Positions 805 through 46,300 of a stretch of DNA of 64,000 nucleotides are shown one piece after another (positions within the stretch are counted from its first letter, which is position 1; every line of letters begins with the position of its first letter). The stretch is from Laetmonice hystrix. Lineage: Eukaryota. The position numbers were made by a program, and so were the translations under genes. The stretch lies in the NCBI GenBank assembly GCA_965235115.1, contig OZ249436.1, positions 620,001-684,000 on the forward strand. The letters are read 5' to 3'. The notes beneath the pieces were generated by a model that saw nothing but the letters and a program-made list of their open reading frames with translations, made no database searches and was not told the origin of the DNA.

Positions 805-1096
805 CAGCCTAGCTCTGACGATATTAGCCACCATGGCAATATCTGCTGGTCACTCACACACAATCACACAAGTACATTCAGCCTAGCTATCTGCTGGTCA
901 CCCACACACAATCACACAAGTACATTCAGCCTAGCTCTGACGATATTAGCCACCATGGCAATATCTGCTGGTCACCCACACACAATCACACAAGTACATG
1001 GTCACCCACACACAATCACACAAGTACATTCAGCCTAGCTATCTGCTGGTCACCCACACACAATCACACAAGTACATTCAGCCTAGCTATCTGCTG
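805..1096. repeat. Host minisatellite (CACACAATCACACAAGTACATTCAGCCTAGCT-type units), left part
   Basis: Variable tandem units. The same motif resumes at 3043-3233, so the array is interrupted by the 334-bp concatemer. Confidence 0.85.
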
Positions 1097-3043
1097 TGTA
1101 GCTCTAACTAGGAAAATATGGATTCCGTCTCATTTCAAAAAGATGTGTGTAGGGGGGAGGGTCCATTGTCCTGCTCGACCACCAAAGCTCCTTTTTTAGG
1201 GGAGTGGCGGTGGCCTAGTGGGCATGGATGTCGACACCTTATGCTATGCGAATGGGTGCAGTAATCTTAGGGTCTGGGTTCGATTCCTGTAGAGGACTAT
1301 ACAACTTTTCTCTTTAGGGACATTGTCAAAGTAATTGGGTTACCCCTGATGCCCGTGCATTTCAAAAGAAAAATACAGTCTACGCCAGTGCCAGGATTAC
1401 CTTAACAGTCAATGTTCGGTAGAAATCATGTGTAGCTCTAACTAGGAAAATATGGATTCCGTCTCATTTCAAAAAGATGTGTGTAGGGGGGAGGGTCCAT
1501 TGTCCTGCTCGACCACCAAAGCTCCTTTTTTAGGGGAGTGGCGGTGGCCTAGTGGGCATGGATGTCGACACCTTATGCTATGCGAATGGGTGCAGTAATC
1601 TTAGGGTCTGGGTTCGATTCCTGTAGAGGACTATACAACTTTTCTCTTTAGGGACATTGTCAAAGTAATTGGGTTACCCCTGATGCCCGTGCATTTCAAA
1701 AGAAAAATACAGTCTACGCCAGTGCCAGGATTACCTTAACAGTCAATGTTCGGTAGAAATCATGTGTAGCTCTAACTAGGAAAATATGGATTCCGTCTCA
1801 TTTCAAAAAGATGTGTGTAGGGGGGAGGGTCCATTGTCCTGCTCGACCACCAAAGCTCCTTTTTTAGGGGAGTGGCGGTGGCCTAGTGGGCATGGATGTC
1901 GACACCTTATGCTATGCGAATGGGTGCAGTAATCTTAGGGTCTGGGTTCGATTCCTGTAGAGGACTATACAACTTTTCTCTTTAGGGACATTGTCAAAGT
2001 AATTGGGTTACCCCTGATGCCCGTGCATTTCAAAAGAAAAATACAGTCTACGCCAGTGCCAGGATTACCTTAACAGTCAATGTTCGGTAGAAATCATGTG
2101 TAGCTCTAACTAGGAAAATATGGATTCCGTCTCATTTCAAAAAGATGTGTGTAGGGGGGAGGGTCCATTGTCCTGCTCGACCACCAAAGCTCCTTTTTTA
2201 GGGGAGTGGCGGTGGCCTAGTGGGCATGGATGTCGACACCTTATGCTATGCGAATGGGTGCAGTAATCTTAGGGTCTGGGTTCGATTCCTGTAGAGGACT
2301 ATACAACTTTTCTCTTTAGGGACATTGTCAAAGTAATTGGGTTACCCCTGATGCCCGTGCATTTCAAAAGAAAAATACAGTCTACGCCAGTGCCAGGATT
2401 ACCTTAACAGTCAATGTTCGGTAGAAATCATGTGTAGCTCTAACTAGGAAAATATGGATTCCGTCTCATTTCAAAAAGATGTGTGTAGGGGGGAGGGTCC
2501 ATTGTCCTGCTCGACCACCAAAGCTCCTTTTTTAGGGGAGTGGCGGTGGCCTAGTGGGCATGGATGTCGACACCTTATGCTATGCGAATGGGTGCAGTAA
2601 TCTTAGGGTCTGGGTTCGATTCCTGTAGAGGACTATACAACTTTTCTCTTTAGGGACATTGTCAAAGTAATTGGGTTACCCCTGATGCCCGTGCATTTCA
2701 AAAGAAAAATACAGTCTACGCCAGTGCCAGGATTACCTTAACAGTCAATGTTCGGTAGAAATCATGTGTAGCTCTAACTAGGAAAATATGGATTCCGTCT
2801 CATTTCAAAAAGATGTGTGTAGGGGGGAGGGTCCATTGTCCTGCTCGACCACCAAAGCTCCTTTTTTAGGGGAGTGGCGGTGGCCTAGTGGGCATGGATG
2901 TCGACACCTTATGCTATGCGAATGGGTGCAGTAATCTTAGGGTCTGGGTTCGATTCCTGTAGAGGACTATACAACTTTTCTCTTTAGGGACATTGTCAAA
3001 GTAATTGGGTTACCCCTGATGCCCGTGCATTTCAAAAGAAAAA
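1095..3043 (+). mobile_element. Head-to-tail concatemer (about 5.8 copies) of a 334-bp tRNA-promoter-bearing, rod-folding element (SINE/retrozyme/viroid-like)
   Basis: Units start at 1095, 1429, 1763, 2097, 2431 and 2765 (period 334), with no differences seen by eye. Each has an A box TGGCCTAGTGG (1211-1221), a B box GGTTCGATTCC (1277-1287) and T6 (1192-1197) just before the tRNA-like head. The acceptor stem does not pair, so it is not a functional tRNA. Confidence 0.8.
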
Positions 3044-3233
3044 CACAATCACACAAGTACATTCAGCCTAGCTCTGACGATATTAACCACCGTCACCCAC
3101 ACACAATCACACAAGTACATTCAGCCTAGCTCTGACGATATTAACCACCGTCACCCACACACAATCACACAAGTACATTCAGCCTAGCTCTGACGATATT
3201 AACCACCGTCACCCACACACAATCACACAAGTA
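3043..3233. repeat. Host minisatellite, right part
   Basis: Tandem CACACAATCACACAAGTACATTCAGCCTAGCTCTGACGATATTAACCACCGTCACCCA units, related to 805-1096. Confidence 0.85.
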
Positions 3234-4193
3234 TATTGACATCCTATATACAGAACGCCGCTCCTGTTCTCGGAACGTTTCGGGTGACATTTATAATATC
3301 GGCATCACATCACCCAACCCCCATTGTTTAACGTTTCAGTCAGAATCGTTTCACCAAAGCCTCCTGCGCTACCCTCACTATGCCGTTATACAATGTCTAA
3401 GGAATGTGTACTTTTGAGTATAATACGTTTGTCGAAACATGCAGTCAGCTCAATTTGGATACATTGTATAACCATGGCCTTTCGCCAGCATGTCACAACT
3501 GGAATACTTATTGTATTTAAATACGTGATATCTCTAATCAACATAATCAAAATACGTCTACAAAAAATCCAGGTCACGTGCCCAGAGCTTTTATCTACAT
3601 GTTTATAATAATACTATAGAGGCACACAATAAACCAACCTGTAAACGGTATCCCTCTTTGTACATGCACACCTGATCTTATTCTTTGGAAACCTTCACAA
3701 TGATTTCGATAATTCGCCTTCTGATGCAACATTCCCTGCTCTATCTTAAACATAACCATCAATTCCAAGGTAAAAATCACAGTTCTTTCAGAAGTCTTGA
3801 ATGAGATGTTATGTAATGAGTCGGACAAACAGAACTTCTAACATGTCGAACACTTGCGCAGTCAATCCAACTACATAGAAGCAGTTCCGGGTCATTGTTT
3901 GTCCCATACACCCATTGGGTCGACACGCATGCGTACTTAAACCTCTAATTGTAGCATAGATTCAAATCCTCGGACGAATCTTCGCATAGAAAGATGGACG
4001 TCTTTGATAAATGTGGATCGGAATCAGATAGGATGTGACGTCACACGGAACGGTTGCACACTGATCGAGACGGTCACAGAACGGTTGCACACTGATCGAG
4101 ACGGTCACAGAACCATGAGCACATCGCGCCCTCTCTCTTGATCCGTCGTCTCGGCATTCAGTTTACAAACACACACACGTAACCTTGCGTCCT

Positions 4194-4622
4194 TTAGTAG
4201 CCCTTCCTTTTGATCATGGCGAAGTGGGTCATCTCCATACGGCCTTGCCGCCGGTCCCCTCGCTCCAGGGTGCCTGTAATGCTGTACCCCATTTGAAAGT
4301 CTGTGTTTGATACATTTGTCGTCAAACTGAGTTTAAAATCTGGGTCAGGCCCGCCATGTTTGAACCTTCCCGTAATGCACATCGTGCCGTTTCCGTTGTC
4401 TGTCATTTTGCCCTTGGTTGAAACCTTCTTGGTGCCCATGACCTCGATGACCTTGCACTTCTTGCGACTCCACCAAGGTGTCTTGAGAATCCAGTACGAG
4501 AGCAGTGCGGGGCGTGCCCAGCCCTCGTACGGGAATAGAAGCACCTTGCTCGGGTACCCGTCATATTGCAAGATCTTCCTGCAGCATTTGCCGCGGTTTT
4601 CATAGTAAAACAACTGCACCAT
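4194..4622 (-). CDS. Uncharacterised 142-aa protein (MVQLFYYENRGKCCRKILQY...THFAMIKRKGY), probably beta-rich
   Basis: Non-repetitive ORF with protein-like composition and a strong Kozak context (AAAGATGG). The same frame stays open upstream to a TTTCAG acceptor at 4812-4813, giving a possible terminal exon 4811-4194 (phase 0). No family recognised. Confidence 0.65.
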   Translation of the reverse strand: MVQLFYYENRGKCCRKILQYDGYPSKVLLFPYEGWARPALLSYWILKTPWWSRKKCKVIEVMGTKKVSTKGKMTDNGNGTMCITGRFKHGGPDPDFKLSLTTNVSNTDFQMGYSITGTLERGDRRQGRMEMTHFAMIKRKGY

Positions 4623-4918
4623 CTTTACTTCTTCTTGGCTGTCTTCTAATTTGGCTGCAAATGTTGCCTTTTCTTTGCCTAAACGTTTCAGTCGACTTTT
4701 CTCGCTGTGACAGGTGGTTCCTAGCGACAGCTGAGCTGGTGTCAGGATGTACGGAGACGGGTCGTCCAGTACTGATCGGCCGAGGATTAGAACATTACTG
4801 ACTAAAGATGTCTGAAACTCCTTTAGTGTTCACGAATTCAGCCAAGCTCATTCCGAGTTTATCTATGTACTCGCTTCTATGCATTGGCGTGAGGTCTGCA
4901 CTTACAGGTATGAACGTT

Positions 4919-43317: not shown

Positions 43318-46300
43318 TCACGAAGGTGTCGGGGCGGCCAGACTGGCCGGGTTACTGAGGAAGGCCAGGTGACCTTTGGGACACTTGTTGGCATAGTGAC
43401 CCTTCTCACCACACTGGAACAGGAAACAACACATTAATCATTTAGTCTGTCACAGAAACTGCCGCGGTTTCTCACCACACAGGAACAGGAAACAACACAT
43501 TAATCATTTAGTCTGTCACAGAAACTGTCTGGGTTTCTCACCACACTGGAACAGGAAACAACACATTAATCACTTAGTCTGTCACAGAATGTGTGTCTCG
43601 GTTTCTCACCACACTGGAACAGGAAACAACACATTAATCATTTAGTCTGTCACAGAAACTGTCTCCGTTCTTAACCTGTATTTACACTGTTACATTCAAA
43701 GGCAGAACAAGGTTGGGACTGAGGACTTACCTTGAAACATGTCACTTCATGTAAAGGTCGCCTGTTAGAATCAGGCTGGAAGGTGCCGCGGTGATCAGAC
43801 ATTGGATGACCTCGAGGGTTAGGACCGAACCCATGGTGACCATGCGTGGAATCTGCTGAGCCAAGAGAACCAATCTGTAAATACAAACACAATCATATTT
43901 TATATCATCACACACTAACAACAGCTCCACTTGGTGTCTTCATTGGTCAAACTTAACAACAAACATGACCATATTTTATATCATCACACACTAACAACAG
44001 CTCCACTTGGTGTCTTCATTGGTCAAACTTAACAACAAACATGACCATATTTTATATCATCACACACTAACAACAGCTCCAGTTGGTGTCTTCATTGGTC
44101 AAACTTAACAACAAACACGATCATATTTTATATCATCACACACTAACAACAGCTCCAGTTGGTGTCTTCATTGGTCAAACTTAACAACAAACATGACCAT
44201 ATTTTATATCATCACACACTAACAACAGCTCCAGTTGGTGTCTTCATTGGTCAAACTTAACAACAAACATGATCATATTTTATATCATCACACACTAACA
44301 ACAGCTCCAGTTGGTGTCTTCATTGGTCAAACTTAACAACAAACATGACCATATTTTATATCATCACACACTAACAACAGCTCCAGTGTGTGTCTTCATT
44401 GGTCAAACTTAACAACAAACATTTAATTAATTTAGGTGACCCATTGGAAGTTGTTGAGGTTGTATCCCCTATTGTTTGAGGTATACTAGTATCCTCTCTC
44501 CGACCCATCACAAGGGTCTATGTCCATGTCCCCACGTAACCAACACTAGCTTCCCGTAACTGACCTTTTGACCTCCAATCTGGTCCAGTTTAGTGCCAGG
44601 TGGAAGTCTTGGACAGCTAGCGGCTTTGTGACCTTGTTCATTACAATAATGACACTGGATGTTGGCTTTCCTTGCCTGTGCCACAGGGTCAGGGGCCGGA
44701 AGGTCAAACTTGGGACTGCAACAGGCAAAAACATTATTTCTCATACAAAGTTATGTGATATGTACGTGTTACCCCATATCTGAAAACCTTCATTTACAAA
44801 TTACACACAAACTGGGCGGTACAGGCACAAGGTTAATCACAAAGTCTAAAAGATGGTTTCCAAATTATATTCTTCTATTTATAATATATTATGCATATAC
44901 AACAACAACTTATGGAATTAAATCATTAATAAAACATCTGATCAAACAAACCCTCAATAAACTCATACTCACTGAACAAATTTGCACTGAGGGCCCTTTG
45001 TACAAAGACCACAGAGATAGTTCTGGCAAAGTACACGACGCACATGACGGTTCTTACAATTGGGACCTAAACAGAAGAGCAACATTAGAACTGGTGTCTT
45101 TCATGGGGCTGGGACGATACATTCTGTTCACGATATGATATATATCTCAATACTTAATCCACGATATGATACGATGTCATATGATGTGATACCAGTAATT
45201 AAGCAATGAGCAATGGTGCAAGACATAGAGAACATAGCCACAATGTGAGTACGACACCACGGGCACAGCCAACCTCTGGATCCTAGCATCTGTTAATATC
45301 CATGACTTACCATGCCGACAAAATCCTCGATCATACCATGGACAGTCTTTAATTTTCTTCTCTGGATCAATGTGTAGGAATGGGCACTCCTTGTTACTAC
45401 ACTGACCTAAAAATCATCAAGCAATCCATCAAACAAGTCAACAACTTTACTGTCATTAACACTTTCTGTGCCACTTCAAGTGCACAGACTAGTCTTATAT
45501 CGCTGACCTTTACAAAGCAAACTGCACTTCTGAAAATTAACTTAATTAAGTCATTTTTTAAATCATCTTTAGGACACTTTAACATTACACTTACCAAATT
45601 TTGAGTAGAAGTAACACTCCGGCATCTTGCTCATGTCATACTCATGAAGAAACTCGCAGTCGTCACCTTTCTTACACAGGCCACGTAACCAATGTTTACA
45701 AACAATTGTACGGTCTCCCTTTACATGGCGGAATGGACATGCTGCACCCTTGGAACACATGCCACTTAGGTAAAACGTGCAAATGGCTGATCCAGACTCT
45801 GGAAATACACAGAGATATATGTGAAGTGCCCTCACCAGATGTTTATCAAGGGGAGCACTTTCATTTTCTTACCAAAACTGGCAAAACATGGTAAACATGG
45901 TATTTTGTCTGTATGTTTGTCTGATTGTGGTAATGTTCACACCTGTGTGTGTGTTGGTGTATGTATATGTAAAATAAAATTCCAATATGTATAAAATATA
46001 ACCTATTTATAAAAGCACAATTGTTTTAGAACCTATGCAAAAACAGACGACATCACAACAAGTTATTTTTAAACTTACTGGTGTCAAAAGCTCAGTAGAA
46101 GGTAAATCCTGAATGATCAAGTTGTCTTACTCTATGTGTACCTGTATGTATTATGTATTAAAATTATCTATCTAAATTTCTTAATGTAAGAATATCAAAT
46201 TGCAAAAGTAGCTATGTACAATTGTCAGGGGATTATATTTACATGATGGTCGTCTATGTAGCCGGGGGGGGGGGGGGCTATATACACAACCGTCATGTAG

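Follow-up and report, generated by a model that had tools for sequence, protein, structure and literature searches.

A 334-bp SINE-like tandem element in Laetmonice hystrix, probably mobilised by a Penelope-like element and copied from a circular template

The window analysed here is a stretch of 64,000 nucleotides from the genome of Laetmonice hystrix (assembly GCA_965235115.1, contig OZ249436.1, positions 620,001 to 684,000, forward strand). At positions 1095-3043 it contains a 1,949-bp tandem array of a 334-bp unit, which is one insertion of a young, abundant, dispersed and non-coding family. Judging from the genomic sequences, we propose that the array is the insertion of a non-autonomous element resembling a short interspersed nuclear element (SINE), that this element parasitises a Penelope-like element (PLE), and that its RNA was copied in rolling fashion from a circle; we give this reading a probability of about 0.6. 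Slightly less firmly, we favour a complete scheme in which the transcript of RNA polymerase III (Pol III), with a terminator immediately next to its start, would be closed 3'-to-5' by the host into a ribozyme-free circle and then copied by rolling-circle reverse transcription from an internal, telomerase-like site by a Penelope reverse transcriptase (RT).

The array, its family and the fixed 3' end

Tandem Repeats Finder describes the array as 334 bp x 5.8, and the assembly holds 5.835 copies with 0 mismatches at period 334. This bears out the identical 5.8-mer noted in an earlier interpretation made from the letters of the window (the sequence-only reading), and the 2-nt TG overlap with the host minisatellite at the 5' junction is present as well. 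At the 3' junction, TTCAAAAGAAAAA is followed directly by CACAATC of the target. The break in the A-rich loop that the sequence-only reading described is therefore real, but it is not the functional end. The element would continue with TACAGTC, which matches the target CACAATC at 5/7 positions, and both differences are wobble pairs, such that the RNA:primer duplex at 3044-3050 comprises 5 Watson-Crick and 2 wobble (G-U/G-T) pairs. The functional end of the array thus lies at 3050 and not at the A-run. No target-site duplication (TSD) was found for the window array, as had been stated, and approximately 10-12 nt of target are apparently lost in comparison with the 48-bp left-hand unit. The host minisatellite, however, is not the unrelated site it was taken for, since TACAGT-like minisatellites are preferred targets of the family.

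The family was followed through 627 Mb of genome in 35 contigs. Below, unit positions u1-334 are counted from window 1095, and L-numbers denote fetched genomic loci. A 25-mer from u250-274 has 6,208 matches with up to 2 mismatches (reversed control, 0), and the read-through sequence across u276-300 has 2,852, so that about 46% of the 3' motifs are internal to arrays. These counts suggest roughly 3,300 insertions averaging about 2 units, an estimate, as the two patterns differ. From the fetched loci, which were chosen by similarity and are enriched for arrays, we delimited 66 distinct insertions; 33 are longer than one unit and 22 have at least 2 units. Their 5' ends are spread round the unit, with 28/66 in u104-146 against 8.5 expected, and the anticipated multimers with variable 5' breakpoints are thereby found. 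The 3' ends are clustered as well, at u279-291 in 62/66 insertions, the other four being interrupted or rearranged pieces; the cluster is centred not on the A-loop, as had been predicted, but 1-7 nt downstream at TACAGTC. The family has the organisation of retrozymes, a non-coding unit within 170-400 nt in dispersed tandem arrays, and shares with non-autonomous PLEs the partial-tandem structure, 5' truncation, variable or missing TSDs and the targeting of repeats.

The 3' end itself is informative. Among the first 100 matches listed, 87/97 terminal copies run on through AAAAA-TACA before diverging (hand count, 3 internal variants excluded). Several different minisatellites were entered at their own TACAG(T), and this motif lies inside the TSDs of L032, L038, L049, L050, L058 and L061. 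The TSDs of the short element range from none to 18 bp, two longer matches stemming from nested copies. One insertion of the partner PLE described below (L093/L094) has a 113-bp TSD that begins with TACAGT, and the motif is therefore supplied by the target. Taken together, the ends running through TACA, the target-borne motif and PLE ends at TACAGT speak against the LINE-type RT (LINE, long interspersed nuclear element) priming on the A-rich loop that was originally proposed. The sequences instead point to the 3' end as the priming site at which target DNA would pair with the RNA. With ends at u280-286, the insertions stop some 150 nt short of the predicted terminator and do not show the terminal priming of a tRNA-derived SINE.

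Several further observations concern the distribution of the family. A minisatellite of about 30 bp with CACTACAGTCAGG acts as a sink: insertions have entered it independently several times, in either orientation and spaced by one repeat unit (L037, L043, L051, L052, L053). L044 (C30:8.927-8.933 Mb) is an array of more than 17 units that is now a higher-order satellite, and in some of its units a stretch of 40 bp with the B box is duplicated. In a metagenome pattern scan the one match lay in an apparent bacterial gene and was taken as chance. Among sequencing runs, none recorded as RNA is listed as containing the sequence. Among the contigs of four runs are family variants and a looped 364-nt contig; these were not used as evidence for expression. 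Contigs of sequencing runs also contain a diverged relative of the segment shared with the PLE (window 1347-1447), joined to a different upstream sequence (record 17 of run X5 and one contig of run X1); by its sequence, it could represent a further family that employs this priming module.

A Neptune-like partner element

None of the 32 open reading frames of the window encodes an RT. A GIY-YIG search revealed a 759-aa frame that recurs in tandem at a spacing of 5.57-5.61 kb, in up to 7 copies. The unit at L093/L094 measures 5,582 bp and consists of an upstream frame and an RT frame with a C-terminal GIY-YIG domain, Pfam RVT_1 and GIY-YIG lying in the single 759-aa frame. This frame has DKG at 156 and a CX4CxxC linker (CGKRGCECC at 561), with the CxxC, read by eye, between the IIY and YVG motifs. 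DKG and a CX2-5CxxC linker are features of Neptune and Nematis PLEs (PMC8557442; cited, like all papers below, for the accessible part of its text). By motifs and domains the partner is a Neptune-like PLE of the Neptune/Nematis endonuclease-positive (EN+) type.

Three lines of sequence evidence connect this PLE with the short element. First, the 3' untranslated region (UTR) of the PLE aligns to u222-326 with 80/103 bases identical, at a local score of 117 compared to a maximum of 78 in 200 shuffles, and the helix u224-231/u316-323 is kept in the PLE with a G-C to T-A change. Second, 45/46 listed PLE copies are terminal and end at or a few bases from AAAATACAG(T), the 46th being an internal variant. 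Third, many of these terminal copies sit in the same minisatellites as the short element. Sequence held in common with an autonomous PLE around the insertion end is also what characterises a non-autonomous PLE. We conclude from these similarities that the short element is very probably mobilised in trans by this PLE family.

Other partners fit poorly. The sequence-only reading had left a choice between a LINE and a Penelope RT, and it is the latter that was identified. Of 20 LINE 3' ends, picked by ORF length from 150 scored RT hits among 4,701 candidates, 0 share the tail; they finish in poly(A), in CAACT repeats, or were not reached. An exact 14-mer of the tail (21 matches) was found in no other family. 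A second PLE family (789 aa, subtelomeric) scores 62 against the segment, within the shuffle range.

The partner PLE carries a predicted minimal type I hammerhead at L093 6145-6186, with 5-bp stems I and II, an extra base after A9 and a palindromic UCGA loop; minimal PLE hammerheads of this kind have been described (PMC4209133). It lies 760 nt downstream of the shared priming site, outside the captured segment. The upstream frame of the PLE comprises 839 codons with NADAR and GDSL-like hydrolase domains (L093 6126-8642, 8624-10000 into L094; C4:35.50 Mb). The two elements are also neighbours at C2:39.2256-39.2276 Mb, where about 250 bp separate the 3' end of a PLE copy from a same-strand array of the short element with six units.

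Other elements were noted alongside the partner. The endonuclease-bearing 789-aa PLE (L095, C6:14000-19500, others near contig ends) directly adjoins CCCTAA-type telomeric repeats, and a telomeric location is a habit described for endonuclease-less PLEs. At L094 ~2140-4570, on the minus strand, an 808-codon RT/RNase H-like frame is present, whose neighbouring frames we take, by eye, to resemble a tyrosine-recombinase (DIRS/Ngaro-like) element. Further GIY-YIG frames of about 2,400 aa or about 560 aa belong to other element types (C2:9593361, C32:4418, C30:14.99-15.14 Mb, C31:18).

The predicted RNA and the form of the template

The unit contains an A box, TGGCCTAGTGG, and a B box, GGTTCGATTCC, a pair that arises in 2/3000 shuffles and corresponds to the promoter of tRNA-derived SINEs, with a longer gap than usual. 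Transcription of SINEs starts about 13 nt upstream of the A box, which here points to A104/G105. The only long T-run of the unit, T6, directly precedes A104, and because of this arrangement the transcript of an array would be exactly one unit, 334 nt, in length. The 5' starts of genomic copies agree with such a start: of 31 distinct copies beginning in u95-117 among the first 100 matches listed (counted by hand, leaving out one ambiguous row and taking one four-fold duplicate as a single copy), 11/31 begin at 104-105, 3/31 in 95-103 and 17/31 in 106-117. A peak at 104-105 would be expected if copying ran off the end of a linear RNA that begins at A104/G105. The ends of the predicted RNA pair with each other (u105-111/u93-99 and u115-119/u85-89; pair probabilities 0.79-1.0), and older copies keep this end hairpin by the compensatory changes C96T and G108A, which represent one inherited change.

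We found no ribozyme that could produce such an RNA. Canonical and minimal hammerhead descriptors gave 0 matches on both strands of the short element, in contrast to retrozymes, while a relaxed descriptor that allows the extra base after A9 does recover the hammerhead of the partner. Rfam, applied to the PLE spacer as well as to the unit and one older copy of it, returned nothing at E<=10 beyond the T-loop or chance matches. These searches bear on the idea that a concealed self-cleaving ribozyme makes and closes the monomer, the element being a retrozyme in disguise. The PLE-derived 105-nt segment is indeed conserved and structured, GAAA...GUC stands at the fixed end, and related elements are retrozymes (PMC7229834). 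Given that the variable junction maps to the T-run and not to this segment, and that the real hammerhead of the PLE was not captured, we regard a hidden ribozyme as extremely improbable.

The T-run also marks the junction between successive units. Among the first 100 of 3,169 matches it varies genome-wide (T5-T8, TTTATT, TTTTAT and others), while inside arrays it is mostly uniform (T7 x11 in L064; TTTTAT x3 and TTTATT x5 in others). Arrays moreover carry private variants throughout: 32A in 6/6 units of L063, 139A in 5/5 of L067, an inserted A plus 82T in 3/3 of L068, and others in L069, L040 and L072. Arrays of one sub-lineage nevertheless differ in their junctions. In the 32A/42A/179C sub-lineage these are T7 x6 (L063), T6 (L099) and TTTATAT (L100, an 11-unit array with period 335 of which two units were read; for each of L097-L100 the reading covers only 751 bp). 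In the 126A/181G/42A sub-lineage, one array has TTTTAT x3 and its sister TTTATT x5; as variant 126A is recurrent (it stands on a different background in L098), only L069 and L097 are treated as sisters. Sister arrays with different junctions otherwise differ by 0-2 bases. The simplest reading of junctions that are uniform within arrays and different between sisters is that the junction is remade once per RNA cycle and then copied repeatedly, as from a circle.

These junctions also bear on two explanations that dispense with a circle. The template might be a long read-through transcript of an existing array, made by Pol II or by Pol III ignoring the T-runs, primed internally and never end-joined. 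A template of this kind has been put forward for PAc, a PLE (PMC11167929), no terminator is present in arrays whose junction reads TTTATT or TTTATAT, and long arrays that could serve as sources exist (L044, a C3 11-mer). Since sister arrays differ in their junction, no sister can be a plain copy of another. The route could only reduce copy number and leaves both the T-run abutting the start site and the 104-105 peak unexplained; we consider it very unlikely. Alternatively, the RT might jump repeatedly from end to end of linear RNA, on the same or different molecules, within one reaction and without covalent closure. The helix would hold the RNA ends together, the 104-105 peak indicates that linear RNA does act as template, and a few arrays mix haplotypes. 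Yet junctions with an apparently non-templated A recur identically in the TTTTAT and TTTATT arrays, as does T7 in L064, and most long arrays have a single haplotype; repeated jumping is thus improbable, if less so than read-through.

The strongest alternative keeps the same element and PLE but requires no circle: the RT would jump once from the 5' end of a linear RNA to its paired U-tail, adding non-templated bases, and the resulting 1.x-mer, a direct repeat, would then grow as DNA by unequal exchange or slippage. This account explains the fixed 3' ends, the remade junctions and the uniformity within arrays equally well. Copy number did change after insertion at L035/L036 and L044, local tandem duplication is very frequent in this genome (Tandem Repeats Finder gives 106 rows for the window), and local amplification is favoured for retrozyme arrays in a preprint (10.64898/2026.07.22.740005). 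Stepwise expansion, however, predicts that some mutations recur in several but not all units, as they do in L044. In 19 other arrays of at least 2.8 units, with L044 set aside as a higher-order repeat, we counted 57 later mutations in single units and only 2 that are partly shared. The units of one array are therefore of the same age, and expansion as DNA would need a single early burst. The large internal share of 3' motifs and the multimeric state of the 5.6-kb PLE also count against this account, and we hold one jump followed by DNA expansion to be possible but unlikely.

We therefore return to the circle and postulate the following cycle. Pol III, directed by the A and B boxes, would start at A104/G105 and stop at the T-run of the next copy, releasing a unit-length RNA with paired ends. 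A single joining of the U-tail, in some cases rebuilt with additional U or A, to the 5' end would then yield a 334-nt circle, the most likely agent being a host ligase; this joining would take the place of the hammerhead that the PLE itself carries. The RT-GIY-YIG protein of the PLE presumably binds the 105-nt PLE-derived segment and nicks TACAGT-like DNA, whose freed 3' end would pair with UACAGUC inside the RNA, in line with the shared segment, end and targets. The RT might then lap the circle one or more times and drop off anywhere, which would account for the observed n.x-mers, in which the 3' end is fixed, the 5' end varies and the TSD is short, long or missing. Unjoined linear RNA would yield monomers starting at 104-105, and some arrays would later alter their copy number as DNA. 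As only insertions that cross the junction and contain the whole stretch from start to T-run can remake a unit-length RNA, copying of more than one unit would be part of the life cycle. Of the rolling-circle copying claimed in the sequence-only reading, the repeated copying of one template thus stands as the best explanation; its covalent closure we infer, and the size changes at L035/L036 and L044 mean that 5.8 units need not represent 5.8 laps at every locus.

A number of observations weigh against this proposal. Pol III transcripts carry a 5' triphosphate and a 3' OH and are not RtcB substrates as such. Expression, RNA start, RNA end and circularity are here predictions from the genomic sequence. 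Pol III must read through an internal T4 run, and junctions without four consecutive T (TTTATT, TTTATAT), which would not terminate it, are common. The folding energy of the whole RNA is no better than that of shuffles (z = 0.34), and only the terminal helix is well determined in the predicted fold. Only the T-loop resembles a tRNA, as a weak match to the Rfam tmRNA model (E 1.2-2.9), and ARAGORN finds no tRNA in the window. L035 and L036 have identical junctions with 2.84 and 5.84 units, respectively. At least 3 older arrays mix sub-family haplotypes (second blocks of L039 and L072, plus strand of L034), which one circle cannot yield. T-run length changes in single units (L032, L035, L036, L047, L057), together with slippage of the G-run at u58 (L065), imply that homopolymer slippage explains part of the junction variation. 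The A-B gap of about 56 nt exceeds the usual 30-40 bp (PMC7279448), and in the single PLE for which in vitro work exists, priming occurs without homology (PMC11167929).

The coordinates of these features are collected in Table 1. The window is very rich in unrelated minisatellites. Elsewhere in it, on the minus strand, a frame with two CCCH zinc fingers at 45572-45868 is probably an exon of a host gene, and a 211-codon open frame at 4194-4829, without a Pfam match, resembles a fragment of another mobile element.

Table 1 Features of the array and its target (window coordinates; u, position in the unit).
Feature	Position	Strand	Remarks
Target minisatellite, left part, 48/58-bp units	840..1094	+	TG microhomology of 2 nt at 1095-1096
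Insertion, 5.835 identical head-to-tail copies	1095..3043	+	Copies start at 1095, 1429, 1763, 2097, 2431, 2765; u = window - 1094 in copy 1
T6 run, predicted Pol III terminator	1192..1197 (u98-103), again 1526-1531 etc.	+	Directly upstream of predicted start; putative RNA end-joining junction
First complete predicted Pol III transcript	1198..1531	+	From A104/G105 to T-run of next copy; predicted every 334 bp
A box	1211..1221 (u117-127)	+	13 nt after A104
B box / tRNA T-loop	1277..1287 (u183-193)	+	
Internal T4 run	1306..1309 (u212-215)	+	To be read through by Pol III
PLE-shared segment	1316..1420 (u222-326)	+	Closed by helix u224-231/u316-323
Internal priming site TACAGTC	1374..1380 (u280-286)	+	After A-run; fixed 3' end of short-element and PLE insertions
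3' arm of predicted transcript	1479..1527 (u51-99 of copy 2)	+	Degenerate reverse complement of head u105-143
Target-derived CACAATC, putative primer-annealing site	3044..3050	+	Complement pairs with RNA UACAGUC over 7 nt
Target minisatellite, right part, 58-bp unit	3044..3237	+	

Relation to known systems

The origin of the head-to-tail arrays of PLEs is still debated. Circles formed after hammerhead cleavage have been proposed (PMC4209133), while in the sole in vitro study of a PLE the hammerhead was dispensable and a long precursor was favoured (PMC11167929). A young 334-nt element with an intact, multi-copy partner offers a small natural system for this question, as its RNA junction is marked by sequence and models with a circle, a jump or read-through make different, cheap predictions. 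Should our proposal hold, the remade junctions would be direct genomic evidence for RNA circles behind PLE tandem arrays. They would point to an unknown ligation route for the ends of Pol III RNA, and to an RT whose internal priming relies on pairing with the target and which runs processively around a small template.

The short element shares with animal non-LTR retrozymes (PMC7229834; preprint 10.64898/2026.07.22.740005) a unit of 170-400 nt, dispersed short arrays, the lack of any protein and homology to the terminal parts of PLEs; for these elements too, rolling-circle reverse transcription of a circular RNA has been proposed (PMC7229834). Retrozymes are, however, defined by a type I hammerhead in each unit (PMC7229834), which is missing here; the ends of the short element appear to be fixed by where Pol III starts and by the T-run. 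The accessible main text of that paper contains neither 'Pol III' nor 'SINE'. Closer in this respect are Sm-alpha and Sj-alpha of Schistosoma (PMC6765202), which also combine a Pol III promoter and a short unit with a need for tandem copies to give a competent transcript. In Sm-alpha a hammerhead cuts monomers from multimeric transcripts (PMC6765202), whereas the short element has none and a predicted terminator abuts its start. A further difference is that the partner RT of the short element is identified by shared segment, end and targets.

Among PLEs, MRC1 and other non-autonomous Chlamys elements of Chlamydomonas (PMC8557442) likewise show head-to-tail insertions and 3' similarity to an autonomous PLE, and the Chlamys clade, like the short element, mostly lacks a hammerhead. 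Chlamys is a different PLE clade with an N-terminal endonuclease, and for MRC1-type elements no Pol III promoter or tRNA-like head is described in the accessible text of the same source, where 'SINE' is absent. The partner resembles the Neptune/Nematis EN+ PLEs and the Poseidon element PAc in its internal RT initiation, tandem arrays and targeting of repeats (PMC11167929). It differs from them in having an upstream ORF with NADAR and GDSL-like domains. PAc starts without homology to the cut DNA (PMC11167929), whereas partner and parasite show 4-7 nt of target-template pairing.

With tRNA-derived SINEs (PMC5786205, PMC11481361) the short element has in common a head with A and B boxes and a segment for RT recognition that derives from its partner's 3' UTR, and its 104-286 monomers resemble ordinary SINEs. 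Unlike classical SINEs, it has a PLE rather than a LINE as its partner, shows neither poly(A) nor a tail shared with any of the 20 LINE 3' ends, and is primed internally, well before the predicted RNA end. The word 'Penelope' is absent from the accessible text of PMC5786205, PMC11481361 and PMC10702118. SINE-derived satellites (PMC10702118) are local, in contrast to the exact-register arrays of the present family at its many dispersed sites; the newt PolIII/TAN 360-nt tandem repeat mentioned in that paper may be comparable. A literature search, which did not extend to Repbase, Dfam, SINEBase, supplements and subscription papers, found no ribozyme-free Pol III SINE dependent on a PLE.

As a whole, the short element works like a retrozyme or Sm-alpha without the hammerhead, and looks SINE-like without the LINE partner or terminal priming; in every feature that could be tested it agrees with non-autonomous PLEs such as MRC1, to which it adds a Pol III head. 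If our proposal is correct, SINE biology would extend to a PLE-dependent, ribozyme-free Pol III element, and to a class of PLE-dependent circular SINEs that are probably hidden as 'satellites' in other invertebrate genomes.

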